From: Thermoanaerobaculia bacterium
GTDB taxonomy: Bacteria > Acidobacteriota > Thermoanaerobaculia > Multivoradales > SZUA-115
Direction of reading: 5' to 3'
Assembly: GCA_046331405.1 (NCBI GenBank)
Contig: JAXLQX010000004.1
Span: 216,207 to 280,206 of the forward strand
Length of the DNA: 64,000 nt
Shown: positions 5,508-60,887 of the stretch, one piece after another
Numbering within the stretch: position 1 is the first letter of the stretch
Layout of the letters: every line of letters begins with the position of its first letter
Made by a program: the position numbers and the translations under genes
The notes under the pieces: model-generated
Seen by the model: the letters and a program-made list of their open reading frames with translations, nothing else
Told to the model about the DNA's origin: nothing
The model's database searches: none

Positions 5508-6982
5508 CCCTCCACGAGCTTCTCCGCGGCCTGCCGGCATCGCTACCTCCCGGCGCCACGGACCCCGAGGTCCGGGGCGTTCGCCACGATTCCCGGCGCG
5601 TCGAGCCGGGGGATCTCTACGTCGCCCTGGTGGGCCAGAAGTTCGACGGCCGGAGCTTCCTGCCGGAGGCCGCGGCGCGTGGCGCGGTGGCGGCCCTCGG
5701 CGCCGGGCCGGCCCCGGCGGGCGCTCCGCTGCCCTGGGTGGAGGCAGCCGAGCCGCGGGCTCTGCTCGCCCCGCTCGCGGCTCGCGTCTACGGCCATCCG
5801 GACCGCGAACTCAAGCTGGTGGGGGTCACCGGCACCAACGGCAAGTCCACCGTGGCCACCCTGGTGACGGCGATGTTCGAGCGTGCGGGTCGGCCGGCCG
5901 GTTTCATCGGCACCCTCGGCTACCGGTTCGGCGGGCGGGATTTCGGCGGCGAGCGCACCACCCCGGAGGCCTCGGACTTCTACGCCCTGCTTCGGACGAT
6001 GCGTACGGCTGGAGCCGAGGCGGTGGCGATGGAGGTCTCTTCCCATGCCCTGGCCCAGGGGCGGGTGGCCGGGGCCCAATTCCAGGTGGCGGTGTTCACC
6101 AACTTGACCCGCGACCACTTCGACTATCACCCGGACTTCGAGCACTACTACTGCACCAAGCGCCAGCTCTTCTCGATGCTGGCCCCGGGCGGCAAGGCGG
6201 TGCTCAACCGGGACGACGCCTACGGCCGGAGGCTCATCGAGGAGCTTCGGGGCGAGGTGCCGATTTTGACCTTCGGCGAAGGTGGCGATGTCCACCTCGC
6301 CCGGGTGGAGCTGGCTCGTAGCGGCTCGCGCGGGGAGATCTCGACCCCGCGCGGCCGCCTTTCTTTCTCCACCCCCCTGCTCGGCCGCTACAACCTGGCC
6401 AATGCCCTCGCGGCAGTGGCCGCGGCCGAGGCCCTCGAGCTGCCTCACGCGGCGATCGCCGAGACTCTGGCCGCCCAGCAGCCGCTGCCCGGCCGGCTCG
6501 AGCCGGTCGACCGCGGCCAGAGCTTCTCGGTGTTGATCGACTACGCCCACACGGACGCCGCCCTGGCCGCCGCGCTCTCCTCGCTCAAGGAGCTCTCGGG
6601 CAAGAAGGTGATCCTGGTCTTCGGCTGTGGCGGCGACCGGGACCCCGGCAAGCGACCCCTGATGGGCCGCGTGGCGGGCGAGCTCGCGGACCTGCCGATC
6701 GCCACTTCGGACAATCCGCGCAGCGAAGACCCGCTCGCCATCCTCGAAGCGGTGGAAGAGGGTCTCAAGGCCAGCGGCAACCGGGCCTACCGCATCGTGC
6801 CGGATCGCCGCGAGGCGATCCGCCTGGCCATCGAGCTCGCCGACGCGGACTGCGCCGTGCTCGTGGCCGGCAAGGGCCACGAGCAGGTGCAGATCTTCCG
6901 CGACGGGCGGGTACCGTTCTCCGACTACCAGGAAATCCTCGCCGCTCTGGAGGCGCGTCTTGGTCACGCGGCGCATCGTTGA
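5504..6982 (+). CDS. murE: UDP-N-acetylmuramoyl-L-alanyl-D-glutamate--2,6-diaminopimelate ligase MurE
   Basis: P-loop VGVTGTNGKST; Mur ligase middle and C-terminal domains; DNPR motif (SDNPRSEDP) typical of meso-DAP-adding MurE; ATGA overlap with ftsI. Confidence 0.95.
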   Translation: MTLHELLRGLPASLPPGATDPEVRGVRHDSRRVEPGDLYVALVGQKFDGRSFLPEAAARGAVAALGAGPAPAGAPLPWVEAAEPRALLAPLAARVYGHPDRELKLVGVTGTNGKSTVATLVTAMFERAGRPAGFIGTLGYRFGGRDFGGERTTPEASDFYALLRTMRTAGAEAVAMEVSSHALAQGRVAGAQFQVAVFTNLTRDHFDYHPDFEHYYCTKRQLFSMLAPGGKAVLNRDDAYGRRLIEELRGEVPILTFGEGGDVHLARVELARSGSRGEISTPRGRLSFSTPLLGRYNLANALAAVAAAEALELPHAAIAETLAAQQPLPGRLEPVDRGQSFSVLIDYAHTDAALAAALSSLKELSGKKVILVFGCGGDRDPGKRPLMGRVAGELADLPIATSDNPRSEDPLAILEAVEEGLKASGNRAYRIVPDRREAIRLAIELADADCAVLVAGKGHEQVQIFRDGRVPFSDYQEILAALEARLGHAAHR

Positions 6983-6995
6983 GGCGGCCGAGGCG

Positions 6996-8368
<1,373 letters not shown>

Positions 8369-8369
<1 letters not shown>

Positions 8370-9454
8370 TGCTCTACTGGCTGCTCTATCCGCTGGCGGA
8401 CCACTTCTCGGTCTTCAACGTCTTCCGCTACATCACCTTCCGGGCGGCGGGAGCCACGGTGACGGCGCTTGCGCTGTCCCTGCTGCTGGGCCGGCCGTTC
8501 ATCGCCTGGCTGCGCCAGATGTCGATGGGACAGAGCATTCGCGACGTCGGCCCGGCCTCGCACCAGGTGAAGGCCGGCACGCCCACCATGGGCGGCCTCC
8601 TGATCCTCTTCGCCCTGACGGTGCCCACCCTGCTCTGGGCCAACCTCACCAACGTCTACGTCTGGCTGGTGTTCGGCACCACCCTGGCCTTCGGCGCCGT
8701 GGGCTTCTGGGACGACTTCGTCAAGGTGAGGAAGAAGCGCAACCTGGGCTTGACCGCCCGGGCCAAGATGCTGCTGCAGATCGTGGCCGCGCTGGCCTTC
8801 GCCTGCCTGCTCTACTCCCTGCGCCAGGAGCTCGGCTTCAGCGATACCCTGGCCTTCCCGTTCTTCAAGAAGGCGGTCTTCAACCTCGGCCTGCTCTACG
8901 TACCGCTGGTGGTCTCGGTCCTGGTGGGGGCCTCGAACGCCGTCAACCTGACCGACGGCCTCGACGGCCTGGCGATCGGTGCCACCCTGATCGCCGCCGG
9001 CACCTACGCGGTGTTCAGCTACGTGGCCGGCAACAGCGTGGCCGCGCGCTACCTGCAGGTGCCCTACGTGCCGGGAGCCGGCGAGCTCGCGGTGTTCTGC
9101 GGTGCGATGGTGGGGGCGAGCCTCGGCTTCCTGTGGTTCAACGCCCACCCCGCCGAGGTCTTCATGGGCGATGTCGGCTCGCTCGCCATCGGCGGGGCGA
9201 TCGGCAGCGTGGCGGTGGTGGCCAAGCAGGAGCTGGTGCTGGTGCTGGTGGGCGGGCTCTTCGTGCTCGAGGCCCTGTCGGTGATCGTGCAGGTGGTTTC
9301 GTTCAAGCTGCGGGGCAAGCGCGTGCTGCGCATGGCCCCGCTTCATCACCACTTCGAGCTGGGCGGCTGGGCCGAACCGAAGATCATCGTGCGGTTCTGG
9401 ATCCTGGCGATCCTCTTCGCCCTGCTCTCGCTCTCCACCTTGAAGCTGCGATGA
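8369..9454 (+). CDS. mraY: phospho-N-acetylmuramoyl-pentapeptide transferase MraY
   Basis: MLYWLLYPLADHFSVFNVFRYITFRAAGA...; 10-TM glycosyltransferase 4 family; ATG overlaps the murF TGA (ATGA). The 668-aa ORF in the track is an N-terminal over-extension in the same frame. Confidence 0.95.
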
Positions 9455-10866
9455 GCGCCGGCTATCCCACACCGAGCCCCTACCGGGACTGGACCGCCGC
9501 TGGCTGGCGGCGGGTGCTGGTGCTGGGCCTCGGCCTCTCTGGCCGGGCGGCGAGCCGCCTGCTCTTGACCCGCAGCGTGGAGGTTCTCGGCGCGGATCAG
9601 AAGAGCTCCGGCGAGCTCGACCTGGGAGAGCTCCAGGGCGTGCCCGGCTTCACCCTGCTCGCCGGCGGCATGCCGGCGGATCTCCCCGCCGGCCTGGATG
9701 GCGTGGTGGTGTCGCCCGGCGTGCCCCTGGCCTCGCCGCTGGTGGCCCAGGCCCGGGCTCGGGGCGTGCCGGTGATCGGCGAGATCGAGCTCGCTTTCCC
9801 CCTGCTCCAGGGCCCGGTGGTGGCGATCACCGGCTCGAACGGCAAGAGCACCACCACCGCACTCACCGGCGCCATGATCGCCGCCTCGGGCCGCCGGGTG
9901 GAGGTCTGCGGCAACATCGGCAAGCCGCTCGCGAGCCTGGTTCCGGGGCCGCCGGGCCGCACCTTCGTGGTGGAGCTCTCGAGCTTCCAGCTGGAGTCCA
10001 TCGCCCTGTTCCGGCCGGCGGCGGCGGCTCTGCTCAACCTGGCGCCGGACCACCTCGACCGCTACGCCGGCCTGGAGCAGTACGGCGCTGCCAAGCGGGC
10101 GATCTTCGCCAACCAGGGCGCCACGGACGTGGCCGTGCTCAACGCCGACGACGCCTGGGTGAAGCAGACCCAAACCCGTTCGCGGCGGCGCTTCTTCTCC
10201 CGCCAGGGGCCGGTCTCCGACGGCTGCTACCTCGACGGCGGCAAGGTGGTGGAGGTGTTCCCGGGCCGGCCGCCGCGGGAGCTCTTCACCGCGGAGCAGG
10301 TGCCGCTCGCCGGCCTGCACAACCTGGAAAACGCCATGGCCTCGGCCCTGCTGGCCCTCTCGGTGGGAGTGGCCCCGGCCGAGCTCGCCCGCGGGCTCGA
10401 GGGCTTCCGCGGCTTGCCCCATCGGCTGCAGCGGGTGGGCGAGGCGGCCGGCGTGGTGTGGTTCGACGACTCCAAGGGCACCAACCCGGCGGCCACGGTG
10501 AAGTCCCTCGAGGGCTTCCGGGACCATTCGGTGCACCTCATCCTGGGCGGGCGCAACAAAGGTGCGGACCCGCGCGAGCTCGCCAAGTCGGTGGCGGCGA
10601 AGACGGTGCGGGTGTACTACATCGGCGAGGCGGCCGGCGAGTTCGCCCGCGTGCTCGGGCCTTACGCGCCGGCCGAGATGAGCGGCACGCTGCCCCGGGC
10701 GGTGGACGCCGCGGCCCGCTACGCCCGCTCGGGCGAGGTGGTGGTGCTGTCGCCGGCCTGCGCCAGCTTCGACCAGTTCCAGAGCTACGTGGACCGCGGC
10801 GAGCAGTTCCAGCGCCTGGTGCGCGAGCGTCTGGGAGCCATCTGGCGGGAGGGCCGCCATGGCTAA
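9451..10866 (+). CDS. murD: UDP-N-acetylmuramoylalanine--D-glutamate ligase MurD
   Basis: Real start MSAGYPTPSPYRDW at 9451 (ATGA overlap with mraY); P-loop ITGSNGKSTTT; Mur ligase domains. Confidence 0.95.
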   Translation: MSAGYPTPSPYRDWTAAGWRRVLVLGLGLSGRAASRLLLTRSVEVLGADQKSSGELDLGELQGVPGFTLLAGGMPADLPAGLDGVVVSPGVPLASPLVAQARARGVPVIGEIELAFPLLQGPVVAITGSNGKSTTTALTGAMIAASGRRVEVCGNIGKPLASLVPGPPGRTFVVELSSFQLESIALFRPAAAALLNLAPDHLDRYAGLEQYGAAKRAIFANQGATDVAVLNADDAWVKQTQTRSRRRFFSRQGPVSDGCYLDGGKVVEVFPGRPPRELFTAEQVPLAGLHNLENAMASALLALSVGVAPAELARGLEGFRGLPHRLQRVGEAAGVVWFDDSKGTNPAATVKSLEGFRDHSVHLILGGRNKGADPRELAKSVAAKTVRVYYIGEAAGEFARVLGPYAPAEMSGTLPRAVDAAARYARSGEVVVLSPACASFDQFQSYVDRGEQFQRLVRERLGAIWREGRHG

Positions 10867-11938
10867 GAAGCTCGCCTGCGACAAGGTGCTGTTCACGGTG
10901 ATCCTGCTGCTGCTCACCTTCGGCCTGGTGATGGTGTACTCGGCCAGCGCGCCGCTCGCCCGCGGCAAGGCGGGCAACCCGCTGTTCGTGCGCCAATGCG
11001 CCGCGGCGGCCCTGGGTCTCCTCGCCATGACGGTGCTGATGCACCTGCCCTACCGGCTGCTGCGCGAGCCACGGGTGATCTGGACCCTGCTCGGCGGCAC
11101 CCTGCTGCTCCTGGTGGCGGTGCTCTTCCAGCCCTCGCTCAACGGCACCCGCCGCTGGTTCTTCTTCGGGCCGCTCTCGCTGCAGGCCTCGGAGCTCGCC
11201 AAGCTGGCGGTGCTGCCGTTTCTCGCCTACCAGATCGACCGCAAGAACGAGCAGGTGAACCAGCGGGACTTCCTGCTGCCCACGCTGCTGGTGGTGGGGG
11301 TGGTGGCGGCGCTGATCCTGGCCGAGCCAGACCTGGGCACCGCCGCCCTGTTGGTGCTGGTGGCCGCGGTGCTGATCTTCCTCGCCGGGCTCTCGCTGCG
11401 CTACGTGGCCGGGGCCGGTGTGGTGCTCGGGGCCCTCCTGGTGGTGGCGGTCTTCTCGGCGGACTACCGCCGCGCCCGGCTGCTCGCGTTCCTCTCGCCC
11501 GAAAGCGACCCCCTGGGCAATGGCTACCAGGCCCTGCAGTCCTTGATCGCGGTGGGCTCGGGCGGCCTCTTCGGCCTTGGCCAGGGGCGCAGCGTGCAGA
11601 AGCTCTACTTCCTGCCCCATCCCGAGTCGGACTTCATCTTCTCGATCGTCGCCGAGGAGCTGGGCTTGCTGGGCGCCCTGGCTCTCCTCGCCGTCTTCGG
11701 CGTGCTTGCCTGGCGGGGCATCCGCGCGAGCCTCGCCGCGCCGGACCGCTTCGGCCGCTACCTCGGCCTCGCCATCACCTGCCTCCTGGTGGTGCAGGCG
11801 CTGATCAACTCGGCGGTGGCGGTGGCCCTCTTGCCCACCAAGGGGATCCCGCTGCCGTTCATCTCCTACGGCGGCTCGTCGTTGATCGTGGCCCTCACGC
11901 TTTCGGGTGTGCTGCTGAACATTTCGGAGCACGGATGA
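10859..11938 (+). CDS. ftsW: peptidoglycan glycosyltransferase FtsW (SEDS family)
   Basis: Polytopic membrane protein with SEDS-family C-terminal motifs (GLLPTKGIPLPFISYGGSSL); dcw position. Confidence 0.93.
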   Translation: MAKKLACDKVLFTVILLLLTFGLVMVYSASAPLARGKAGNPLFVRQCAAAALGLLAMTVLMHLPYRLLREPRVIWTLLGGTLLLLVAVLFQPSLNGTRRWFFFGPLSLQASELAKLAVLPFLAYQIDRKNEQVNQRDFLLPTLLVVGVVAALILAEPDLGTAALLVLVAAVLIFLAGLSLRYVAGAGVVLGALLVVAVFSADYRRARLLAFLSPESDPLGNGYQALQSLIAVGSGGLFGLGQGRSVQKLYFLPHPESDFIFSIVAEELGLLGALALLAVFGVLAWRGIRASLAAPDRFGRYLGLAITCLLVVQALINSAVAVALLPTKGIPLPFISYGGSSLIVALTLSGVLLNISEHG

Positions 11939-11942
11939 GGCC

Positions 11943-13043
11943 ATGGCGACTCCCGCTCCGCTTGCGATTCTCGCCGGGGGCGGCACCGGCGGCCACGTGT
12001 TTCCGGCCCTGGCTGTGGCGCAGGGCCTGGTGGCCCGGGGGTGGCGCGTGAGGCTGGTGGGCAGCAACCGCGGCCTCGAGGCCCGGCTGGCCGCCGAGCA
12101 CGGCGTGCCGTTCTCGGCGCTGCCGGCGGAGCCTTTCCTCGGCCGGGGGCCGCTCGCTCGCCTGCGCTCGCTCGCCACGCTGCTGCGCTCGGCCCGGGCG
12201 GCGCGCAACCTGGTGGCCAAGGAGGGCGCCCGGCTGGTGCTCGGCACCGGCGGCTACGCGGCGGCCCCGGCCATGCTCGGCGGCTGGATGGCCGGCCGGC
12301 CGCTGCTGCTGCTCGAGCCGAACGCCCGCTCCGGCGTGGCCAACCGCTGGCTCTCGCGGCTGGCGGACGAGGCTCTGGTGGGCTTCGAGCGCACTGCCCG
12401 CGAGCTCGCCTGCCCGGCCACCGTCACCGGCGTGCCGGTGCGGGGCGAGTTCCATCAGGTGGCGCCCTTCCCCCTCGAGGGACGCGGTCATTCTGTGCTC
12501 GTCCTGGGCGGCAGCCAGGGGGCTCGCCAGCTCAACGAGCTGCTACCCCCGGCCCTCGCCGCGCTCGCGCCTTCGCTGCCGGGCCTCCAGGTGCTCCATC
12601 AATGCGGCGCTGCCCATGTGGCAGCCACCGAGGAGGCCTATCGCCGCTGCGGCCTTGCGGCCGGGACGGTGGAGGTGGTGCCGTTCCTCCAGGATGTGGC
12701 CGGGACGATGGCGCGAGCCGACCTGGTGGTGAGCCGGGCCGGCGCGATCACCGTGGCCGAGATCGCCGCCGCCGGCCGCCCGGCCCTGTTCCTGCCGCTG
12801 GGCATCGCCGGCGGCCACCAGGTGGCCAACGCCCTGGAGCTGGTGGAAGCCGGCGCCGCGGCCCTGCTGGACCCCTCCGAGGCGACGGTTGAGGAGCTCC
12901 GCGAGCGCCTCTCGGTGCTCCTGGCCGACCGCGGCCGCCTGGCGCTGATGGCGGAAGCCGCCCGCCGGCTCGCCCGCCCGGAGGCCCTCGAGGCGATCCT
13001 CGAGCGGGTGGAGCACTGGGCGAAGGAGGAGGCGGCGGCATGA
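11943..13043 (+). CDS. murG: UDP-N-acetylglucosamine--N-acetylmuramyl-(pentapeptide) pyrophosphoryl-undecaprenol GlcNAc transferase MurG
   Basis: LAGGGTGGHVFPALAVAQ glycine-rich N-terminus; GT28 family. Confidence 0.95.
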   Translation: MATPAPLAILAGGGTGGHVFPALAVAQGLVARGWRVRLVGSNRGLEARLAAEHGVPFSALPAEPFLGRGPLARLRSLATLLRSARAARNLVAKEGARLVLGTGGYAAAPAMLGGWMAGRPLLLLEPNARSGVANRWLSRLADEALVGFERTARELACPATVTGVPVRGEFHQVAPFPLEGRGHSVLVLGGSQGARQLNELLPPALAALAPSLPGLQVLHQCGAAHVAATEEAYRRCGLAAGTVEVVPFLQDVAGTMARADLVVSRAGAITVAEIAAAGRPALFLPLGIAGGHQVANALELVEAGAAALLDPSEATVEELRERLSVLLADRGRLALMAEAARRLARPEALEAILERVEHWAKEEAAA

Positions 13044-14434
13044 TGTTCCGCACCTTCGCCGGGCTTTCCCGGGTGCATTTCGTGGGCATCGGCGGCGCCG
13101 GCATGAGCGGCATCGCCGAGGTGCTGCTGGACTATCAGCTGGAAGTCTCGGGCTGCGACGCCGCGGCCAACGAGGCCACCGATCGCCTCGCCCGGTTGGG
13201 TGTGGCGATCCACTTCGGCCACTCGGCGGAGCACCTCGAGGGCGTGGACCTGGTGGTGAAGTCCTCCGCCGTACCGGACGACAACGTGGAGATCGCCGCC
13301 GCCCGGAAGCGGGGCATCACCGTGGCCCGGCGCTCGGAGATGCTGGGCGAGCTGATGCGCCTGAAGTACGGCATCGCGGTGGCCGGCACCCACGGCAAGA
13401 CCACCACCACCTCGATGGTGGGGGCGATCCTCACCGAGGCGGGCCTGGACCCGACGGTGATCGTGGGTGGGCGGCTGCGGGTTTCCGGTACCGGGGCCCG
13501 GCTGGGCAAGAGCGATTATCTGGTGGCCGAGGCGGACGAGTTCGACCGCAGCTTCCTGCGCCTGGCGCCGGTGATCGCGGTGATCACCAACATCGACGCC
13601 GACCACCTGGACACCTACGGCGATCTGGCGGCGATCAAGAAGGCCTTCGTGGACTTCGCGGACCGCGTGCCTTTCTTCGGGCGGGTGATCCTCTGCCTGG
13701 ACAACCCCAACATCCAGGCGGTGTTGCCGGAGCTGGCAGGTCGGCGCCTCTTCACCTACGGCCTCACTCCCCAGGCGGACCTCTCGGCCGTGGTGCTCGA
13801 GACCCGCACCACCGGCAGCCGCTTCCTGGTGAAGCGCCAGGACGGCGGCGAGCTCGGCGAGCTCGAGGTGCCCATGCCGGGCAGCCACAACATCGCCAAC
13901 GCCCTCGCTGCCACGGCGGTGGGGCTGTCCCTCGAGGTGCCCTTCGCCACCATCGCCCGGGCGCTCTCCGGCTTCGGCGGGGTGCACCGGCGCTTCGAGC
14001 TGGTGGGCAGCTTCCAGGGTGCCTCGGTGATCGACGACTACGCCCATCACCCCACCGAGGTGGCCGCGACTCTCGAGGCGGCGCGCCAGAGCTGCCCCCG
14101 GGGCCGGGTGCTGGCAATCTTCCAGCCCCATCTCTTCAGCCGCACGCGGGACCACGCCGGCGCCTTCGGCCGCGCCCTGCTCTCGGCCGACCGCGCCTGG
14201 GTGACGGACATCTACGCCTCGCGCGAGAAGGCGATCCCCGGCGTGAGCGCCGAGCTGGTGGTGGAGGCGGCCCGGGCGAGCGGCCACCACAACGTGGAGC
14301 TCTGCCCGAACTGGCGGGAGCTGCCGTCGCGCCTCGCAAGCGTCGCCGAGCCGGGGGATTTGATCATCACCCTGGGAGCGGGGGACATCTACCAGCTCGG
14401 CCGCGCCCTGGCGGCGAGCGGGGAGGCCGCGTGA
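13040..14434 (+). CDS. murC: UDP-N-acetylmuramate--L-alanine ligase MurC
   Basis: HFVGIGGAGMSGIAEVL and GTHGKTTTTSM motifs; Mur ligase domains; ATGA overlap with murG. Confidence 0.95.
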   Translation: MMFRTFAGLSRVHFVGIGGAGMSGIAEVLLDYQLEVSGCDAAANEATDRLARLGVAIHFGHSAEHLEGVDLVVKSSAVPDDNVEIAAARKRGITVARRSEMLGELMRLKYGIAVAGTHGKTTTTSMVGAILTEAGLDPTVIVGGRLRVSGTGARLGKSDYLVAEADEFDRSFLRLAPVIAVITNIDADHLDTYGDLAAIKKAFVDFADRVPFFGRVILCLDNPNIQAVLPELAGRRLFTYGLTPQADLSAVVLETRTTGSRFLVKRQDGGELGELEVPMPGSHNIANALAATAVGLSLEVPFATIARALSGFGGVHRRFELVGSFQGASVIDDYAHHPTEVAATLEAARQSCPRGRVLAIFQPHLFSRTRDHAGAFGRALLSADRAWVTDIYASREKAIPGVSAELVVEAARASGHHNVELCPNWRELPSRLASVAEPGDLIITLGAGDIYQLGRALAASGEAA

Positions 14435-15351
14435 GCCACGCGAGCCCGCTGCCCGGCGCTCTGCCCGCCTCGGTGCTCGAGCCGGCGGTGGCTCCCTATC
14501 GCCGGGGCGGCACGGTTCCACGCCGACGGCGCCGGGGCCGTCAGCTCTGGGCCTTCGCCCGCCGGGCCGTGACGCCGATCGCGGTGGTGGCCTCGGGAGC
14601 GGCGGTCTCGGTGTGGGTGCTCTCCTCGCCCAGCTTCGCCGTGAGCGAGGTCCGGGCCCTGGGCACGGGGCGAGTCTCCGAGCGCTGGGTGCGCCAGGCC
14701 CTCGCACCCCTGGCGGGTCGCAACCTTCTTCTGCTGCCCCTCTCGGAGGTGCGCGAGCGCCTGGCGGCGAACCCCTGGGTGGCGAGTGCGGGCATCGCCA
14801 AGGAGCTGCCGGGCCGGCTCGAGGTCTCGCTGGTGGAGAAGAAGCCCGCCGCCCTGGTGAAGCTCGGCAGCCAGGGCTACTGGGCGGAGGCAGACGGCAA
14901 GCTGATCGCGCCGCTCGCCGTGGGAGAAGAAGCCCTCGGGCTGCCCACGCTGGTGGACCGGACCCCGGCCCTGAGCTCCGGCAGCGGAAGCTCCGCCGAG
15001 GTGCCCCGAGCCCTGGCGCTCCTGGCCGGGCTGGGCAAATTGCGGCCGGATTGGACCCGCGAGCTGGCGGCGCTCGCCCTGCTCGGCGGCGGCGACTTCT
15101 CCCTCGAGACTCGCGCCTTGCCCTTCCCTCTACTGCTCGAGGACCAAGGCTATGCCGCCAAAGTGGAGCGGCTGGGCCGGCTGCTACCGGAGATCGAGAA
15201 GCGCTATCCGCACCTCGCGGCCGTCGATCTCCGCTTTTCCCGACGCATCATCCTGGTGCCGGCGGCCGAAGAGCCAGCCGGCGAGGCCGCCGCGACGCCG
15301 GCGGCGGCTGTCAACGACGCAACAGCAACGCAACCATCGGAAGCGTTTTGA
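14431..15351 (+). CDS. ftsQ: cell division protein FtsQ/DivIB (POTRA domain)
   Basis: GTG start overlapping the murC stop; N-terminal TM (VTPIAVVASGAAVSVWVL); POTRA-like region; conserved position before ftsA. Confidence 0.75.
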   Translation: MSHASPLPGALPASVLEPAVAPYRRGGTVPRRRRRGRQLWAFARRAVTPIAVVASGAAVSVWVLSSPSFAVSEVRALGTGRVSERWVRQALAPLAGRNLLLLPLSEVRERLAANPWVASAGIAKELPGRLEVSLVEKKPAALVKLGSQGYWAEADGKLIAPLAVGEEALGLPTLVDRTPALSSGSGSSAEVPRALALLAGLGKLRPDWTRELAALALLGGGDFSLETRALPFPLLLEDQGYAAKVERLGRLLPEIEKRYPHLAAVDLRFSRRIILVPAAEEPAGEAAATPAAAVNDATATQPSEAF

Positions 15352-15370
15352 AGGAAGATCTGGAGACGAG

Positions 15371-16612
15371 ATGGCCAAACCGCGCCAACAGTATTACGTG
15401 GGAATCGACATCGGCTCCTCCAAGGTCGGTGTGCTGGTGGGCCAGCGCGACGACCGGGGCAACCTGGAGGTGGTGGGCCGCGGGCTCGCCGACAACCGCG
15501 GCACTCGCAAGGGCAACATCGTCAACGTCGAGGCGACGGTCGAAGCCCTGAAGCAGGCCGCCGAAGAGGCCGAGGTGATGGCCGGCGTGGAGATCTCGCG
15601 CGCCTACGTGGGCATCGGCGGTGCCGATGTGCGGAGCGTCAACTCCCGCGGCATGGTCTCGGTGGCCCGCAAGGACCGCGAGATCGGCCGGCAGGACATC
15701 AAGCGCGTGCTCGACGCCGCGCAGTCGGCGGCCCTGCCCACCGACCGCGAGATTCTCCACGCCATCCCCCAGGAATTCGTGGTCGACGAGCAGGGCGGCA
15801 TCGCGGACCCGGTGACCATGCTGGGCAGCCGCCTGCAGGTCACCGTGCACCTGGTCACCGGCTCGACCGCCCGCTCGAAGACGCTCTTGACCTGCGTCAA
15901 CCGGGCCGGCATCGAGGTGGTGGAGCTGGTCTTCGAGCCGCTGGCCACCGCCGAGGCCGTGGTCACGCCGGACGAGCGGGAGCTCGGCGTGGTGCTGATC
16001 GACATCGGCGCCGGCACCGCCGGCTACTCGCTCTTGATCGAAGGGGAGGTCTACCACAGCGGCGTGCTGCCCTTCGGCGCCGGTCATTTCACCAACGACC
16101 TCGCCATGGTGCTGCGCACGCCGTTCACCGAGGCCGAGAAGATCAAGGTCAAGAACGGCTGCTGCCTGGCCTCCCTGGTGGGCGACGAAGAGGGAGTCTC
16201 CGTGCCCACGGTGGCCGGCGGCACCACGAGGGTGGTGCCCCGGCGCGAGCTGGCGGCGATTCTCCAGCCCCGCGCCGAAGAGATGTTCAGCCTGATTCGC
16301 GAGGATCTGCGCAAGCATGGCTTCGAGGAGAGCCCGCGCGGCGGAGTGGTGCTGACCGGCGGTGGCGCGAAGCTCGACGGCCTGCTGGAAGTGGCCGAGC
16401 AGATCTTCGACGCCGGGGTGCGCTATGGCCTGCCGCGTGGCCTGGGTGGACTGGTCGATGTGATCAGCTCGCCGGCCTGGGCCACCGCTTCGGGCTTGCT
16501 AATCTACGCGGCCAATGCCGACAACCGAGACAGCCGGATGCACTCCCGAAAGGGCTTTTCCATGCGCGGCATGATGAGCAGCCTGAAGGGAATGTTCTCC
16601 GACTTGCTGTAG
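15371..16612 (+). CDS. ftsA: cell division protein FtsA (actin-like ATPase)
   Basis: Real start [24 protein letters not shown] (ATG 15371); actin-fold phosphate-1 motif; ORF-track start 15152 is an upstream extension. Confidence 0.93.
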
Positions 16613-16637: not shown

Positions 16638-17909
16638 ATGATTCTTTTCGACGAGGAGAAGGGCACCACCCGGCCCACCGCCGTCGCCGTGCCGGAAGCG
16701 GTGAACGTGCCGGCGAAGATTCGTGTGGTGGGTGTGGGCGGGGGCGGCGGCAACGCCGTCAACCGCATGATCGATGCCCAGCTGGGTGGCATCGAGTTCA
16801 TCGCGGCCAACACCGATCTGCAGGCCCTGGTGAAGTGCCGGGCGCCGCTCAAGCTCCAGATCGGCGACCTCTTGACCAAGGGCCTCGGCGCCGGCGCCGA
16901 CCCGGAGATGGGCCGCAAAGCCGCCCTCGAGGACACCGAGAAGATTCTCGAGCTCTTGGACGGCGCCGATATGGTGTTCTTGACCGCCGGCCTGGGCGGC
17001 GGTACCGGCTCGGGCGCAGCGCCGATCATCGCCTCGCTCGCTTCCGAGATCGGCGCGCTCACGGTGGCCGTGGTCACCAAGCCCTTCGCCTTCGAGGGCC
17101 GGCGCCGCATGCAGATCGCCGAGCAGTCGATCGAGGAGCTGCGCGGGGCGGTGGACACCCTGATCACCATCCCCAACGAGCGGCTGTTGTCGTTCGTCGA
17201 GCGCGGCACGCCGCTTTCCGAGGCGTTCCGCATCGCCGACGACGTGCTGCGCCAGGCGGTGCAGGGCATCTCGGACCTGATCACCATCCCCGGCGAGATC
17301 AACGTCGACTTCGCCGACGTGCGCACCATCATGACCGGCATGGGCATGGCCCTGATGGGCACCGGCGTGGCCAAGGGCGAGAACCGAGCCCTCGAGGCGG
17401 CGCAGCGGGCGATCTCCTCGCCGCTTCTGGAGGAGACCTCCATCCAGGGCGCCAAGGGCGTGCTGCTCAACATCTCCGGCGGTCGGGACATGACTCTCCA
17501 CGAGGTGGCCGAAGCCGCGCGGATCATCTCCGAGGCGGTCGATACGGACGCCAACATCATCTCCGGCATGGTGATCGACGAGGCCCTCGAGGACGCCATG
17601 AAGGTGACCGTGATCGCCACCGGCTTCGAGCCGGCGAGCCACCACGTCACCACCTCGGCCACCCTGCGGCCGCGGATCGCCCCCCCGGCTGCTTCGGTGG
17701 CCCCCCTGCGCCCGGCCGCGATGCCGATGCGCAGCGCCCCCGAGCCGGCTCCCTCCCGCCACGAGCCGGAGGACGCGGCGGCCGAGACGCCGTTCTACCG
17801 CAAGGCCATGGCCCAGTCCCGCAACGACGACTCCGGCGGCTTCGGCCCCAACTGGTCGAACGTGGACGACTACGACATCCCCACGGTGCTGAGGAAGCAG
17901 ATGGACTGA
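16638..17909 (+). CDS. ftsZ: cell division GTPase FtsZ
   Basis: [17 protein letters not shown] and tubulin signature [10 protein letters not shown]; Pro/Ala-rich C-terminal linker and conserved C-terminal peptide ([12 protein letters not shown]). Confidence 0.97.
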
Positions 17910-18048: not shown

Positions 18049-20511
18049 GTGGCCAACAGCAGCCAGGAACCCGCCCCTGGTTCCTCGCTCGCCGACTTCG
18101 TGGAGCAGGCTCTGCAGCTCGAGGGACGCTCCGGCGTGAGCGAGATGCTTCGGCTGCTGGTGACGAAGGTCCGGGCCTACGGGGCGATCTTGTGGGAGGA
18201 GTCTGACCCAGGTGAGGGCGGAGAGGGGAAGGAGACCTCCCTCTATGTGCTGTCCCAGTGGTTTCCCACAAGCCAGTGCGTGATTCACAACCTGCCGCTC
18301 GACTCGCTCACCGGCGACGCGATTGCCAGTGGAAGGCCCGTCAACGTGCCGGACTGGAGGCAGTACCCACGCACCTTCCGAAGCCACCCATTTCTTGATG
18401 AACACGGAATTGGTTCCCTGTGCTCGATTCCGCTCCTCTACGCCGATGGCAAGCGGGGTGCCCTCAACTTCTATCGCCAAGCAGTGGATCGGTTTACCCC
18501 AAGCGAGCAGCAGCTTCTAGAAAAGGCTGCTCGCCTCTTACCGGGGCTCTACCAGGCGCTGGTCCACCGTTTCGGCTTCGACCTCCTGGGCCAGGCGGCG
18601 AAGGTACTCCTAGGGGCGGCGGTGGCCGAGGCAACCGCCGCCCCAGCTGCGCAGAGTGCAGCTATCGGATGCCTCGAGGAGTTCTGTCTCCTCTTGGCGC
18701 AGGCATTTGGCGCGCTAGAAGTGAGCTTGGTGCTCGAGAACGACTGGGAACATCCGGGGCGCTTCCCAGTGGTCGCTGCCACTTGGGAGCGATGCAAGGC
18801 TTGGCCGGCCTTTGAGAGAGGGAAAGGCCAGGGTGTCACAGGTTGGGTGATCGACAACGATGAAAGCCAAAGAATTTTCAATCTCGCGTCGCTGACCGGC
18901 AAGACCACCAGGAGGGGGAGGCGCCCGCCGCGGCCTTTGAAACGTCTGCTGGAGCAGCTGGTGGTCGCCGCGCAGGAGACGCTGAAGGAGGACCTGGACC
19001 CGACCATCCCGGCCCTGAGCTGTATCGTCTCCCCGGTGCGAGGAGGGGGGCGAGTGTTGGGAGCCCTCCGGTGCAGCATTCTCCGGAGAGACCCCTTCCT
19101 TTTTGCCCGGCGTGAGCTTGTCTTGCTTGAGCTCCTCGCCAGCCAGGTGGGCTCCTTCTGGCTGAATGCAATGAAGCACGCAGAGTCCTTACGGGAGAAC
19201 GAGTCCTGGAAGTCCCTTGTCGAAAGCGTGGGCTCACTGAATCACTTTGTCTACTCGGAGCTCAAGGGCGCACGGGCGGATGAGCACTCGGTCTTCGAGC
19301 GAGCTCTCAAAGTTGTCGGTTCAGCAATCTCCGGCGCTGAGATACTAGATATCCGCCTGATCGACCCGACTGGGCAGTTCTTGTACTTTTTCCACACTGC
19401 CGGCGAGGCCTGGACTCAGGGTGACCCAGACCTTGTCGCGCGCCGGAAGGACAGGAAATTCCCATTGGGGCCTGGGAAGCCCCAGTCCGCAGGAGCCTAC
19501 GCTGTTCAGCACCGGGATGTGTACGTGATGGAGGACGTCACTCGAGACCCTTACTACAACGAGATCTTTCCGAACACTCGGCGAATGATCATCGCCCCGA
19601 TCCGGGTGGAAGACGAGATCTACGGCGTACTCGACATCCGAGGTACTGGCCCGAGGCCGTTCCATCGCGACGCCAAGCTCATGGCCGATCTTCTCGGCCG
19701 CCAGCTCGGTCTCTATCACTACCTGGGAACGAGTCTTACCCAGCTCAGGAAGGCGGAGAGTAAGCTGAGCGCATCAGTTGATGTGTTGAAGCTGCGACGC
19801 AAGAAGGAAGCTCAGACTTTCGAGGACTTCGCTCATCAGTTGAAAGGTTCACTGCACATGGCGCACTGGCGAGCCAGAGCCGCTCTAGATGAAGACCCAC
19901 TGAGCCCTCGCCACAAGCGAGGCCTGAGAGCGATTCGGGGGCAGTGTGGCAAGGCTCGCCGAGCCACTCACTCGATGGCCTTCTTTGCCGATCTCGTGGC
20001 GGAACGCGAGCCTGAGGTGCGTCTGCAGAGACTAGAGACAGGCAATCTAGTTCGGATGTTGATCGAAGCTGCAGACGACCAACAGTCTCTCCTCGATCCA
20101 GACCTCAACTTGCGTTTTGATATTGTGAGAGACTCGTTTGGCGTTCTCGGAACAGTTGCGGTGAATGCCGACATAGGACTCTTGGAACAGGCAGTGGGCA
20201 ATCTACTAGACAACGCGGCGAAGTATAGCCAACCTCGCACAGCAGTTGTCGTCTATGGTGGGCGTACAGGAAGCGATCGATTTCACATCTCTGTCCAGAA
20301 CAAGGGGCTGCCGATTCGTCCCAGCGAAGTGTCGCGTCTCAAGGAACGCGGGTTTCGAAGTGAAGAGGCCCAGCTTGTAACAGGGGAGGGGTCAGGAATT
20401 GGTCTCTGGATTGTGGACCACATCATGCGAGCCCAGGGCGGCGAGCTGATCGTTCAGCCAACTGCTCCTTCGGGGTTGAACGAAGTAAAGCTTGTGCTCC
20501 CTGGCAAGTGA
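18049..20511 (+). CDS. cytoplasmic multi-GAF-domain sensor histidine kinase
   Basis: 820 aa, no TM segments; GAF-like N-terminal regions; H-box FAHQLKGSLHMAHW; N-box NLLDNAAKYS; G2-box GEGSGIGLWIVDHI (HATPase_c). Start at GTG 18049 is uncertain (weak RBS). Confidence 0.75.
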   Translation: MANSSQEPAPGSSLADFVEQALQLEGRSGVSEMLRLLVTKVRAYGAILWEESDPGEGGEGKETSLYVLSQWFPTSQCVIHNLPLDSLTGDAIASGRPVNVPDWRQYPRTFRSHPFLDEHGIGSLCSIPLLYADGKRGALNFYRQAVDRFTPSEQQLLEKAARLLPGLYQALVHRFGFDLLGQAAKVLLGAAVAEATAAPAAQSAAIGCLEEFCLLLAQAFGALEVSLVLENDWEHPGRFPVVAATWERCKAWPAFERGKGQGVTGWVIDNDESQRIFNLASLTGKTTRRGRRPPRPLKRLLEQLVVAAQETLKEDLDPTIPALSCIVSPVRGGGRVLGALRCSILRRDPFLFARRELVLLELLASQVGSFWLNAMKHAESLRENESWKSLVESVGSLNHFVYSELKGARADEHSVFERALKVVGSAISGAEILDIRLIDPTGQFLYFFHTAGEAWTQGDPDLVARRKDRKFPLGPGKPQSAGAYAVQHRDVYVMEDVTRDPYYNEIFPNTRRMIIAPIRVEDEIYGVLDIRGTGPRPFHRDAKLMADLLGRQLGLYHYLGTSLTQLRKAESKLSASVDVLKLRRKKEAQTFEDFAHQLKGSLHMAHWRARAALDEDPLSPRHKRGLRAIRGQCGKARRATHSMAFFADLVAEREPEVRLQRLETGNLVRMLIEAADDQQSLLDPDLNLRFDIVRDSFGVLGTVAVNADIGLLEQAVGNLLDNAAKYSQPRTAVVVYGGRTGSDRFHISVQNKGLPIRPSEVSRLKERGFRSEEAQLVTGEGSGIGLWIVDHIMRAQGGELIVQPTAPSGLNEVKLVLPGK

Positions 20512-20531
20512 CTAGGTTTGTGGAGCAGAGA

Positions 20532-20993
20532 ATGAGAGTTGTTTTGGTGGAGGACGACTACCCACAAGGTATGGCTACAAGGGAGGAGATCTTTTCCCTT
20601 TTCCCCCAGGCGCAGATTCTGTGGATCAAGTCGGAGTCCGCATTTCGCCTGGCCCTCAGCGACCTGGCAGCAGAACCCCCAGATCTGTTCATCCTCGATG
20701 TGATGGTCCGGTGGGCTGGCACAGAGCGACCGATACCAGAGCCACCGATGGAAATCAAGAGGGAGGGCTTCTTCCGGGCAGGTCTCCGGTGTCAGAGGCT
20801 ACTGGCAGCAGAGCCTCGCCTTCGAAGCGTGCCAGTGTTACTCCTCTCAGTTCTCGAGGAACGAGATCTGTCGCTATCCTTGCGACAGTTGGACCCTGCC
20901 ATACCGACAGTCCGCTTCTTGCAAAAGGGGAGAGAGAGCGTCGTGGAGGCGATTGAGAAGATTCTCCATGCGCGCTCTTCGAGACCCAACTGA
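20532..20993 (+). CDS. single-domain (CheY-like) response regulator, no output domain
   Basis: MRVVLVEDD..., phospho-acceptor Asp in DLFILDVMV, conserved S/T (LLSVLE) and Lys (RFLQKGRE); ATG 20532 preceded by GGAG; reading frame overlaps the HK stop (GTGA). Confidence 0.7.
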   Translation: MRVVLVEDDYPQGMATREEIFSLFPQAQILWIKSESAFRLALSDLAAEPPDLFILDVMVRWAGTERPIPEPPMEIKREGFFRAGLRCQRLLAAEPRLRSVPVLLLSVLEERDLSLSLRQLDPAIPTVRFLQKGRESVVEAIEKILHARSSRPN

Positions 20994-21005: not shown

Positions 21006-22340
21006 CTACGCTGCAAGCGCATGCTCCAGGGCCGCGAGGTTCGCAGGATCGAGGCCGCGGACGAGCTGGAGTTCCTCGAGCACACCGCCTGGGAAGTCCT
21101 CTTGCAACAGTTCCTTCCCCACAAGCAGCTGTAGGGCGAACGTAGCTTCTTGCCCCAAAGTTTCTAGAGACCTCGCCAGCAGGAGGATTGACTTTTCGAG
21201 AGCCTCCGGGTCCGGTTCCCTGGCGGGCCATCGCTCCACGGAGCTCCGCGCTGCAGCGATCAGGCCTTGGAGCTTGAGCTCGCCAGAGTGGAGGACATCC
21301 ACGAGGTCCGCTACGGTGTGCTTCAGGCTGGCTTCGGTGGAGTGGTCACTCGCAAAAGGGTTGCTGGAGCGAGTGGCTTCCAGAACCTGAGCGATCGTCT
21401 CGACCAGAGCTCGGGCTTCGCTGGGTACATGAACACGCACGGCTTGGCCATCGCAAAGCACTTCAAGGCACTCAACCGCAGCCTGACTCGGGAGCAGGGC
21501 AAAGGCGTAGTGCCAGAGGATAGCCTCGTCGTTGCCAGTCCAGAAGAAGAGCCGAGGCAAGCATTCCGTCGCCCAGGCTGGCCAGCTCTGGCGGTGCGCC
21601 ACCAAGAGCATCTCGAGATCGGGCTGGGCGACGTTGAATACCGCCTGGCAGGTGTTCGCAACGAGAGCGCGAAAGGACTCGCGGCGATCAGGTCGATCGC
21701 GGTAGCGGTCCGCTATGAGCCGAAGGCCGTAACCCAGGGCCTCGAGGTCTGGTTGCGCCGGGCGAGCACCTTCCACCAAGGTGTTCCGCAGCCCCCAGAG
21801 TCCTCGTTCTGGGTCTCCGGGAAGCCTGGCAGTACCGTCGTCGGCTACCATCGCCAGCCACTCGGACTCAAGGCGGCTGTCTAGCTGGTTCTCCATCAGA
21901 GCATCTCGGAGAACAGCTTGGAGCGGAATTCCCAGGTACTGGCCGGAAAGGCCTGCCAGCCGAGCGGGAGTCGAGTAGATCTCGAACAGCGGGCCCGCCA
22001 GGGCTTCGGGGCAGCGCAAACCCGCCGCCAGCATCAGTGCGTTGTAGAGCAGATCCTGTTGTCGATGAGCCAGGTCCCTAAGCTCAGGCTGGGCATGGAG
22101 CAGTCGAGCCAACCGCTTGGCCAGTTTCAGCTCGGTCTTCTGTCGCTGGCCATCCAGGGGAAGCGCTCGCAGAAGCCAGAGGTAGGGTTCGTCTCCGTCC
22201 CCCGACTGAACCGGCAGCCCGTAGCCTTCGAGCAAGTCGGCGAATTCCTCGAGCGACCAGTCTCTTCGGCGGAGGAACGCATCAAGCGCAGCGCGCACTC
22301 GCTGAACGCAGTCGGGAATTGCCGGTTCCTGTTCCTGCAT
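21006..22340 (-). CDS. hypothetical protein (444 aa), no recognisable domain; acidic and Leu-rich
   Basis: Clean minus-strand ORF with ATG preceded by GGGGAG; protein-like composition in the low-GC island; no P-loop, nuclease or other motifs recognised by eye. Confidence 0.55.
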   Translation of the reverse strand: MQEQEPAIPDCVQRVRAALDAFLRRRDWSLEEFADLLEGYGLPVQSGDGDEPYLWLLRALPLDGQRQKTELKLAKRLARLLHAQPELRDLAHRQQDLLYNALMLAAGLRCPEALAGPLFEIYSTPARLAGLSGQYLGIPLQAVLRDALMENQLDSRLESEWLAMVADDGTARLPGDPERGLWGLRNTLVEGARPAQPDLEALGYGLRLIADRYRDRPDRRESFRALVANTCQAVFNVAQPDLEMLLVAHRQSWPAWATECLPRLFFWTGNDEAILWHYAFALLPSQAAVECLEVLCDGQAVRVHVPSEARALVETIAQVLEATRSSNPFASDHSTEASLKHTVADLVDVLHSGELKLQGLIAAARSSVERWPAREPDPEALEKSILLLARSLETLGQEATFALQLLVGKELLQEDFPGGVLEELQLVRGLDPANLAALEHALAA

Positions 22341-22370
22341 GGTGACTCCCCGCCCGAGGCGTGGGGTGGC

Positions 22371-23465
22371 TCAGTATAACGTGCTGGGCATCCAGCGGTC
22401 GATGTGTGCGGGACCGTAGGTATCGGACAACCTCTTGTGGTGTGCCCTTCGTGCGGACAACAGGTCCCCGGAGACTCCTGTTCCGAGTCTCGCGATCGCC
22501 CAGCCGGCCCGCCTCCAGTCGGAGATCCTGTAGTCGATCTCGGTATGAAGCCACTCTGGGAGGAGAGGCTCCCGGCGCGAGAAAGAACGCAGGGCCATAG
22601 GATGGCCGCCGTCTCGGGCTTCCAGATGGTCGGGCGAAGGGAAGTGGAGGTAGTTCCAGGTTCCCGCATCGAGCAACGTCGGTCGCGCGAGGGTGCCCAC
22701 TCTGCCCGCTTCGTAGCAAAGCATGACCAGCCAGCGACCGGGAGCCTTCTCCATGCCGAGAACCTCGGCCCAGACCTCTGGAGGCTGGCTCAGGTACGGC
22801 TCAAACTGAATCCAGGAGGTCACCCAGGCCGGTTGAAATGGATGCTTTGCGCGGAAGCGAGCCATAAGGGCAAAGAGGGCTCTGAGGAATCGGCTCTGTT
22901 CATCGCGGCTCTTGCCGAGGAGGTAGGAATCCAGCCAGGATTCAAGGCTCCTGGCGCCGGTCAAGCTTGGCCTCATGAGCTTCAGCCGTCGGTACAGAGC
23001 GTTGCGGGGAGCTTCTCCCGCCCATTTGAGTACGGGCGCGAGCCCATTCAGATCGAGTAACCGGGCCAGGAGAAGCTTCTTGCTCACTCTGCCCCGCGCT
23101 GCAAAGCCTCCCAGAACAATGTTGCCGCCGGGCCCGCCGTTAAGGGGCTCGAGAGCAAAGTCAGGGTCATACCTCCTGCGCACTCGGCTCTCGAAGTTCT
23201 CTTTCAGCGCATGTCGGAGTTCCCTCGGAGTCCGCGGTTGTTCGCTGGCAAAGCGGAGCAGGCCAGACCGAGCCGGGCTCACCCGATGGTCGTAGCGGAT
23301 GCTCTCGGCCACGGCCTTGTCCTGATCGTTGCCTCGCGCTGACAACTCGGTGAGCGGGACATCCAACACCCGGCCAGTAGCGTTGTCCAGGCGACCCCAG
23401 ACCGGCAGTTTCGACAGGTCCGTCCCCATGAGCCTAGAGATACGAATGAGATTGTAACTTCGCAT
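22371..23465 (-). CDS. hypothetical protein (364 aa), no recognisable domain; first gene of a two-gene minus-strand operon
   Basis: Start set at MRSYNLIRISRLMGTDL (ATG 23465) because the upstream ORF-track extension (to 23591) has noncoding-like composition. Ends 30 nt before the next gene. An AT-rich promoter-like region lies at 23466-23523. Confidence 0.5.
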   Translation of the reverse strand: MRSYNLIRISRLMGTDLSKLPVWGRLDNATGRVLDVPLTELSARGNDQDKAVAESIRYDHRVSPARSGLLRFASEQPRTPRELRHALKENFESRVRRRYDPDFALEPLNGGPGGNIVLGGFAARGRVSKKLLLARLLDLNGLAPVLKWAGEAPRNALYRRLKLMRPSLTGARSLESWLDSYLLGKSRDEQSRFLRALFALMARFRAKHPFQPAWVTSWIQFEPYLSQPPEVWAEVLGMEKAPGRWLVMLCYEAGRVGTLARPTLLDAGTWNYLHFPSPDHLEARDGGHPMALRSFSRREPLLPEWLHTEIDYRISDWRRAGWAIARLGTGVSGDLLSARRAHHKRLSDTYGPAHIDRWMPSTLY

Positions 23466-23523
23466 AGAACGCCGTGCAATAGGGCCAAAGCAATGTACTC
23501 CATTTGCATGACAACATGACCCC

Positions 23524-24099
23524 ATGCCCCTCTTCCACACCTCCCGCGAGCGCTGGCTTTGGCTCGCGGCCCTGGGGTACACGCTTCTCATCTACAGCAC
23601 CCTGGTAGTGGCCAAGCAGGCCACGATCTTTCTGCGCGAGCGCAATCTGCTGCGGCTCACGGTGGGGCTGGCGTTCGGGGTGGTGGCCGTGGTGGCGGTG
23701 GTGCTGCTCGCCCGGCTGCGCCTTCCGGGGCGAGCGTGGCTCGCGCTTCTCGGCATCGCTCTGGGCTATGCCGCGGTGTTCCCGTTCGCGGTGGCTCCCG
23801 AGGAGCGGCTGCATTTGATCGAGTACGGTGGGCTCGCTCTGTTGATCTTCGGGGCGCTCTCGGAGCGTTCTCGGGCGCGGGTCGGCGCCGGCGGCCGGCC
23901 CTGGCCGCTCAGGCTCCGCGCCCTGGTGGCGCTGCTCTTGACCTCGCTCTTGGGCTTCGGGGACGAGCTGATCCAGGGCTTGCTGCCATCGCGGGTCTAC
24001 GACCTGCGCGACGTGGCCTTCAACGCTGCGGCAGCGGCTCTCGCCCTGGCGGCTGCGGGCCTACTCGAGTGGAGCCGGGGAGTTTCTGGAGTGCGCTGA
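23524..24099 (+). CDS. VanZ-like family membrane protein
   Basis: 4 TM helices plus VanZ motifs ERLHLIEYGGLALL and GFGDELIQGLLPSRVYDLRDVAFNAAAAALA. Confidence 0.6.
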   Translation: MPLFHTSRERWLWLAALGYTLLIYSTLVVAKQATIFLRERNLLRLTVGLAFGVVAVVAVVLLARLRLPGRAWLALLGIALGYAAVFPFAVAPEERLHLIEYGGLALLIFGALSERSRARVGAGGRPWPLRLRALVALLLTSLLGFGDELIQGLLPSRVYDLRDVAFNAAAAALALAAAGLLEWSRGVSGVR

Positions 24100-25559: not shown

Positions 25560-27215
<1,656 letters not shown>

Positions 27216-60189: not shown

Positions 60190-60191
60190 GG

Positions 60192-60806
60192 CTAGCCCCG
60201 CAGCACCGCCCGCACCGGCGAGGCGTCGAGCCCCGCGAGCTTGAGCGGCAGGGCGATGAGCTCGTAGTCCCCCGGCGGCACGGCGTCGAGCACCAGGCCT
60301 TCGAGGATCACCACCCCGGCCCCGGCGAGCGCATGGTGGGCCGGCAGCTCCTCGCTGCCGTACGGGTCCACCGAGGGCGTGTCCAGCCCCACCAGCAGCG
60401 GCCCCTGGCCGGCGAGCCAGGCGGCCAGGCGGGGCGAGAGCGCCGAGAACTGCGGCGAGAAGCGGTGGCGATCGGCCACGCTGCCGGTCCTGAGCAGGAG
60501 GCGGGGCGGGGGCGCCGGGCCCAGGCTGCCGAGATGCTCTGGCTCGAGCAATGGCACCGGGGGCACCGCCAGAACGCGGCAGGGGCCGAGGAAAGCCTCG
60601 AGCGGCAGATCGCCGATGCCGGCGGCCCCGGCCTCGGTATGAAGCGGCGCATCCACGTGCGAGCCCAGGTGCAGGGTGGTGCGAATCACCCCCACGTTGG
60701 CAGCGGCACCCGCCTCGAGGGCGTACTGGAATTCGCCGGAGAACGGCTCGTCCCCGGGCCACACGGCGAGCTCCGGGCTGATCGCAGGAGAGATGTCGTA
60801 GAGCAT
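60192..60806 (-). CDS. cyclase-family protein (kynurenine formamidase / arylformamidase-like)
   Basis: HxGxHxDAPxH motif (LHLGSHVDAPLH) characteristic of the putative-cyclase (KynB) family; 204 aa. Confidence 0.75.
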   Translation of the reverse strand: MLYDISPAISPELAVWPGDEPFSGEFQYALEAGAAANVGVIRTTLHLGSHVDAPLHTEAGAAGIGDLPLEAFLGPCRVLAVPPVPLLEPEHLGSLGPAPPPRLLLRTGSVADRHRFSPQFSALSPRLAAWLAGQGPLLVGLDTPSVDPYGSEELPAHHALAGAGVVILEGLVLDAVPPGDYELIALPLKLAGLDASPVRAVLRG

Positions 60807-60887
60807 CGCCCCAGTCTACGGTTCCTGGCAGGGGGATGTTGGGGGCCCCGGCGGGGCGTTTTGCTATCCTGACTGTCGAGAAACCCC

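Follow-up and report, generated by a model that had tools for sequence, protein, structure and literature searches.

In Detocs, a two-component system gates an exchangeable effector, which can be a PNP ATP nucleosidase, a restriction endonuclease (REase), a Toprim protein or an alpha/beta hydrolase (bioRxiv 10.1101/2023.01.24.525353). Among NAD+-targeting toxins, Serratia Rhs1-CT is a TNT-like NAD+ glycohydrolase (NADase) (PMC10539506). Here we analyzed a gene pair, A and B, in a 64,000-nucleotide stretch of the metagenome-assembled genome of a Thermoanaerobaculia bacterium (Acidobacteriota; GenBank assembly GCA_046331405.1, contig JAXLQX010000004.1, positions 216,207 to 280,206; hereafter the window). 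The pair lies beside genes for a histidine kinase and a receiver, and the functional unit is these four genes (GAF kinase, receiver, B and A), not two. As in Detocs (DtcA/DtcB/DtcC), a histidine kinase and a stand-alone receiver are combined in a compact cassette. We classified the unit as a two-component-coupled effector cassette built from two new protein families, with a predicted function; no prior description of the cassette or of either family was found in the literature. Its features in the window are as follows.

18049..20511, plus strand: histidine kinase, 820 amino acids, cytoplasmic, with three GAF domains, a HisKA-like H-box 'AHQLKGS' (His596) and HATPase_c
20508..20993, plus strand: single-domain receiver (REC); the GTG at 20508 overlaps the kinase stop codon, and orthologs suggest ATG 20532 (153 amino acids)
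21006-22340, minus strand: protein B open reading frame (ORF), 444 amino acids, ATG start, with GGGGAG 6-11 nucleotides 5' of the ATG
22341-22370, minus strand: A-B spacer, 30 nucleotides, with B's ribosome-binding site GGGGAG (seen directly in the sequence)
22371-23429, minus strand: protein A ORF, 352 amino acids by homolog alignment; the alternative ATG 23465 gives 364 amino acids
23430-23523: divergent intergenic region between A and a VanZ-like gene, AT-rich (GC content 0.47), presumed to hold the A-B operon promoter

The four-gene cassette and its distribution

Scanned with hidden Markov models (HMMs) and phmmer, the fetched loci included 18 distinct ones, the window among them, in which the four genes lie side by side. 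The linked loci include eight GTDB genome contigs, from Acidobacteriota metagenome-assembled genomes (MAGs) and one 'Uhrbacteria' bin. Metagenome loci collected through the kinase alignment were diluted by generic ATPase motifs, and only about 13 of 80 were relevant. Every A-bearing locus with enough flank has the same layout: A, then B, then a convergent receiver of ~150 amino acids and a GAF-GAF-GAF histidine kinase of ~820 amino acids. At one locus (L014) A is inverted relative to B and still adjacent to it. The 3' ends of B and REC overlap by 4-26 nucleotides in four called loci and are separated by gaps of 4-92 nucleotides elsewhere (12 nucleotides in the window).

The identity matrices of A, B, REC and the kinase correlated pairwise across 13 non-redundant complete cassettes (r 0.75-0.89), and 0 of 2000 permutations reached the observed values. 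Host phylogeny may contribute to this correlation. Judged from sequence identity, the matrices show the four genes to be inherited together and to co-diverge. The original prediction, made from the sequence of the window alone, had remarked on the placement of A and B next to a two-component system, and this proved to be a conserved association that recurs in 18 loci with unrelated flanks.

No two loci share their flanking genes, examples of which are ftsZ/VanZ/thiC, purine synthesis, ExbBD, peptidases and pyruvate:ferredoxin oxidoreductase. GC content of the cassette is below that of its flanks in 16 of 17 loci and also in the window, where the four-gene block stands at 0.611 against 0.704 for the rest (0.70 for the whole window). 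The compositionally foreign island proposed earlier was thereby borne out. Since the cassette is lower in GC than its flanks and the flanks are unrelated, we conclude that it is a self-contained, horizontally moving accessory module of soil bacteria. No att-like direct repeats or integrase marked the island bounds in the window. Mobile or defence-type genes lie near some cassettes, and most others are without them: a serine recombinase and a RES-domain protein (L004, 15-4099), RloB (L002, 16617-17026) and AAA_14/DUF4143 (L021, 7195-8364).

Protein families and cassette variants

A and B are genuine conserved genes. The original prediction of a two-gene unit of 364 and 444 amino acids held for the ORFs, the length of B, the 30-nucleotide gap and the ribosome-binding-site-like GGGGAG before the ATG of B; the start of A was revised. 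Three ATG codons are candidates: 23591, which would overlap the divergent VanZ-like gene, 23465 (364 amino acids) and 23429 (352 amino acids). Against 18 relatives, A aligns from 'LPVWGR' onward, just a few residues past ATG 23429, and most relatives start with 'MPPVFGR', making ATG 23429 the best start; ATG 23465 is a possible one from the sequence. The NCBI call of A (313 amino acids) removes part of a conserved 'AVAxNIRYDHRVS' block. Both NCBI entries (U0002_11575 and U0002_11580) are named 'hypothetical protein'.

The AT-rich region noted earlier upstream of A was confirmed (GC 0.47 for 23430-23523 versus 0.70 for the window). It contains no match to the sigma-70 consensus and no notable repeats; searches for a sigma-70 promoter or a terminator gave no convincing candidate, and Rfam detected no RNA family in the A-B region. 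Orthologous loci have A-B spacers of 17-64 nucleotides. In the window, A and B share one reading frame (22341-22373) with only TGA and 27 nucleotides between them. Stop-codon read-through joining the two proteins was ruled out because the spacings differ in homolog loci, and no A-B fusion occurs among 169 retrieved proteins. Neither protein has a transmembrane-like segment, as had been predicted, and a membrane or secreted location was ruled out as both lack hydrophobic segments.

The description of both proteins as lacking a recognizable family survived at the level of profiles, with no family in Pfam, NCBIfam or PADLOC matching A or B and no confident match to an ordinary metabolic or structural protein in Pfam, PDB or PADLOC. 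PDB profile searches with full-length A, its C-terminal region and B returned chance matches only. Structural models qualified that description, placing B among alpha-solenoids and giving A a weak likeness to NAD+-using toxins. AlphaFold models computed from each protein's own homolog alignment were confident, with a predicted local distance difference test (pLDDT) score of 83.7 and a predicted template modelling (pTM) score of 0.85 for A, and 86.5 and 0.79, respectively, for B.

A profile built from A and its first homolog defined a family of 19 cluster representatives including the window's own. The 18 relatives are metagenomic proteins of 320-379 amino acids that align over their full length at 31-39% identity; all are hypothetical or unnamed and without a Pfam domain. 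A relaxed Pfam scan (E<=10) of all 19 members also returned nothing. Polar residues D47, R49, R54, N97, N103, R249, D254, H262, S265, E292, H295, R327 and H330 are invariant in the family, and a protein with so many invariant polar residues is enzyme-like. The model has an alpha/beta enzyme-like fold with an extra N-terminal helical domain. A is thus an enzyme-like protein of a new alpha/beta family.

The best structural matches of A are weak and comprise CPILE-a, Serratia Rhs1-CT, Certhrax (twice), Tne2, VIP2 and AvrPphF; Foldseek against PDB gave no relative. In the model a strand begins at E292, right behind a variable loop of low confidence. A glutamate following a loop is reminiscent of the ARTT-loop/Glu arrangement in ADP-ribosyltransferases (ARTs). 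R249, S265 and E292 are all invariant, with a spacing atypical for the R-S-E motif, and catalytic residues could not be mapped. The model makes an NAD+-using fold for A plausible, not established.

Exhaustive HMMER searching of 1.84 billion representatives returned 444 members of the B family at E<=1e-3, of which 262 reached 1e-10 and 70 reached 1e-30. A word-indexed search with B returned only B itself, which reflects the sensitivity limit of that search and not an absence of relatives. B proteins encoded beside A homologs are 27-34% identical to the window's B. The best match outside the window's own entry (P0021) is annotated as coming from a Planctomycetaceae MAG, so the family is not confined to Acidobacteriota.

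According to the model, B is an ARM/HEAT-like alpha-solenoid (residues ~10-265) to which a small domain of the ferredoxin-like (ACT/HMA-like) type (~272-330) and a helical tail modelled at low confidence are joined. The predicted solenoid is a right-handed superhelix of stacked helical repeats, and no Arm or HEAT repeat profile in Pfam matches B. We therefore describe B, from its modelled structure, as an alpha-solenoid, which is a protein-binding scaffold fold, with a ferredoxin-like module. N-terminal extensions of more than 100 amino acids occur in 11 of 150 listed members (149 relatives and the window's own). From these 150 representatives, 28 longer-than-typical members were scanned for domains. 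Seven carry an XRE-type helix-turn-helix (HTH), while sigma70 region 4, CarboxypepD_reg and an ATPase domain of the cassette-kinase family were each found once. Pfam detected no HTH in the window's B. An HTH-fused B occurs in an otherwise standard cassette (L019), where an extra 132-amino-acid ORF of no family lies between it and A (5619-6017). By analogy, the HTH-fused variants resemble autoregulating antitoxins and regulators. At another locus, L022, the in-frame fusion partner of B (653-2257) is HATPase_c of the cassette's own kinase family; this may be a real Rosetta-stone case, or the contig, at 3x coverage, may be chimeric.

Several loci depart from the standard layout at the first gene. 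In L021 a 572-amino-acid HD-CE protein (PF24391, E 1.5e-21) takes the place of A, followed by a longer B-like protein, REC and the kinase. L105 and L106 have no A; an extracytoplasmic function (ECF) sigma factor and a 407-amino-acid protein with sub-threshold similarity to alpha/beta-hydrolases precede the B-like protein, the ECF sigma gene lying directly 5' of the B-like gene. Because A is replaced or absent at these loci, the kinase, REC and B are the steadier part of the cassette; its first gene position appears to be an exchangeable effector slot, occupied by A in most loci and by an HD-CE phosphohydrolase in one. Comparison by hhalign of A or B with the L106 407-amino-acid protein, the L021 N-terminal extension and the L019 132-amino-acid protein revealed no remote homology, and no literature was found on the function of PF24391. 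Two loci (L027 and L033) have the kinase and REC without A or B. At L023 an IS3-like transposase fragment occupies the A/B position after the kinase and REC (4676-5215), which suggests a disrupted cassette. The A homolog of L017 is split into two overlapping ORFs (6911-8018), by a frameshift or as a pseudogene.

Pfam assigned three GAF domains and HATPase_c to the kinase, and no transmembrane segment was detected in it. All related cassettes contain this kinase. Seven orthologs share an invariant histidine (His596 in the window; 'AHQLKxP'), the N-box LLDNAxKYS and the G2-box TGEGSGIGLW. GAF domains usually bind small metabolites. The receivers fall below the Pfam threshold. In an alignment of 10 orthologs the acidic pocket (E7, D8, D9), the acceptor D56 and K132 are invariant, the T/S position is conserved, and a family-specific proline-rich insert, 'RWADPxP..PP..FRAGLRC', follows beta3. 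With all phosphotransfer residues kept, the phosphorelay looks functional from its sequence. The receiver has no output domain and therefore must signal via a protein partner.

Mechanism, alternatives and genomic surroundings

Our preferred reading, held tentatively, is a two-component-gated effector module that works like Detocs and lies outside its architectural definition. A and B would make up the output side of a self-contained signalling-effector module of four genes that spreads by horizontal transfer. Binding of an intracellular ligand by the GAF domains would switch the kinase, and His596 would then phosphorylate Asp56 of the receiver. The receiver, having no output domain, would act through binding B. 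B would hold or otherwise regulate A, and receiver binding to B would release or activate it. A could then consume NAD+ or ADP-ribosylate a target, leading to growth arrest or defence. In relatives where B carries an HTH, this domain would autoregulate the operon. Signal-gated release of an enzyme that possibly attacks NAD+ is, we infer, the likely job of the cassette.

Several observations weigh against this reading. Flanking genes are mostly housekeeping genes (in the window, ftsZ and thiC). Relatives were absent from a phage collection (B query), a plasmid collection (A and B queries) and IMG/VR (A profile), and no PADLOC model matches A or B. No profile of a known ART, NADase or RES family in Pfam, NCBIfam, PADLOC or PDB matches A, and the candidate residues R249, S265 and E292 lie much closer together than the motif residues of classical R-S-E toxins. 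Effector exchange has two loci as its basis, the hydrolase call of one being below threshold. The associations of B with HTH, sigma70_r4 and ECF sigma factors fit a transcriptional output equally well. The conflict, defence or toxin-like role suggested by the original prediction stays a hypothesis.

The main alternative is an ordinary, non-conflict regulatory pathway, which we consider somewhat unlikely. The GAF kinase and receiver would sense a metabolic cue, B would be a transcription co-regulator or anti-sigma-like adaptor, and A would provide the physiological output through its activity or expression, either as a regulatory modifying enzyme (by reversible ADP-ribosylation as with DraT, for example) or as an accessory enzyme. 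The N-terminal XRE HTH in 7 of the 28 extended B relatives, sigma70 region 4 in another and the ECF sigma gene directly before the B-like gene in L105/L106 all favor such a pathway, as do the small-metabolite binding typical of GAF domains, the housekeeping flanks of most loci and the lack of any PADLOC, phage, plasmid or IMG/VR signal. Against it, the composition of the cassette is foreign to almost all its hosts, and its flanks are never identical, leaving no fixed regulon neighbor. The window's B also has no DNA-binding domain, and exchange of the first gene for an HD-CE hydrolase is typical of conflict systems.

Less probable still, and in our view quite improbable, is a stand-alone toxin-antitoxin or toxin-immunity pair in which A is an NADase/ART-like toxin, B its neutralizer, and the two-component system only tunes transcription. 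The enzyme-then-partner order with a 17-64-nucleotide spacer recalls SPN-IFS, Tne2-Tni2 and DarT-DarG, and HTH-fused B variants recall autoregulating antitoxins. The window's own B lacks the autoregulating DNA-binding domain of a type II antitoxin, and its 444 amino acids far exceed the usual size of an antitoxin. Regulation of transcription by the receiver would need a DNA-binding output, which it does not have. B persists where HD-CE or other genes replace A, as a specific antitoxin would not, and A and B never occur without the kinase and REC in the loci recovered here; both findings weaken the plain toxin-antitoxin interpretation. The idea that one or both ORFs are non-coding artefacts, prompted by the long spurious ORFs frequent in high-GC DNA (several of which overlap the A-B region), is refuted by full-length homologs at 25-40% identity in conserved synteny (18 relatives of A, 444 representatives of B) and by confident models of both proteins.

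The surroundings of the cassette in the window are as follows.

8000-16600: dcw-like cell-division/cell-wall gene cluster
16638-17909, plus strand: ftsZ, the end of this cluster
23524-24099, plus strand: VanZ-like membrane protein; passes NCBIfam vanZ_1 and falls just short of the Pfam cutoff for PF04892
24103-25266, minus strand: ORF of 387 amino acids, no family match
25560-27110: thiC ORF
27106-27213, minus strand: thiamine pyrophosphate (TPP) riboswitch (RF00059, 60.8 bits), upstream of thiC

The cassette sits right after ftsZ, an unusual landing site for a foreign island. Neither the VanZ-like gene nor the 387-amino-acid ORF is conserved beside it in other loci. The mechanically called TTG start of thiC at 27110 overlaps the TPP aptamer, so the true start lies further downstream. 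Elsewhere in the window, GC skew is 0.13-0.17 at 43-46 kb (43000-46000), and AT skew is unusually strongly positive (0.19-0.33) at 58-61 kb (58000-61000).

Comparison with known systems

Few soil bacteria are as abundant, or as hard to work with, as Acidobacteriota, whose accessory and immune gene content is hardly known. The present cassette adds a compact transferable four-gene module containing two families without annotation, confident models of both proteins and an apparently exchangeable first gene. If the gating model holds, it would represent a second architecture for two-component immunity or dormancy, running from kinase to free receiver to solenoid adaptor to effector, and maybe also a new branch among enzymes that target NAD+. 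Should the regulatory alternative hold instead, the cassette would reveal a new output route for single-domain response regulators.

The receiver resembles those of the CheY type in having all phospho-acceptor residues and no output domain; it differs by the proline-rich insert after beta3, and no chemotaxis genes lie nearby. B is comparable to ARM/HEAT scaffolds such as importin-beta, beta-catenin and designed armadillo proteins. It differs from them in its bacterial context, in the lack of a Pfam Arm/HEAT match, in the trailing ferredoxin-like (ACT/HMA-like) domain and, for some relatives, in fusion to an XRE HTH. The HD-CE protein (PF24391) at the A position of the otherwise orthologous L021 cassette is unrelated to A in sequence.

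NADase/ART toxins and their immunity proteins (SPN-IFS, Tne2-Tni2, Rhs1-CT-RhsI1, Certhrax, VIP2 and CPILE-a) supply the best, though weak, structural matches of A, and the toxin pairs share with the cassette the order of enzyme followed by partner protein. In contrast to these toxins, A has no sequence-profile match, Foldseek match or mappable catalytic residues; it carries an extra N-terminal helical domain and has no domain for secretion or delivery. Known immunity proteins include no relative of B.

The likeness to Detocs extends to an exchangeable effector as the terminal component and to a signal that would gate a nucleotide-cofactor-degrading enzyme. The kinase has the phospho-accepting histidine (His596) and ATPase domain (HATPase_c) expected of a Detocs kinase. 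In other respects the two architectures diverge. No REC domain corresponding to the N-terminal receiver of the DtcC effector was found in A or B by Pfam, NCBIfam or the models. Each cassette has one receiver gene, with no second stand-alone receiver (DtcB), and three cytoplasmic GAF domains serve as sensor in place of TPR. A large alpha-solenoid protein, B, is placed between receiver and effector, and the operons are convergent. The cassette has no sequence relationship to Detocs, and any anti-phage role for it is hypothetical. It is possible, though doubtful at present, that these cassettes form a new class, common in soil Acidobacteriota and reaching Planctomycetota, that joins a triple-GAF kinase, a receiver and an alpha-solenoid adaptor to an exchangeable effector slot. 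In such a class, A would be a fold-level relative of NAD+-degrading toxins, and an immune or dormancy switch would be thrown through the adaptor, not through a receiver fused to the effector as in Detocs.

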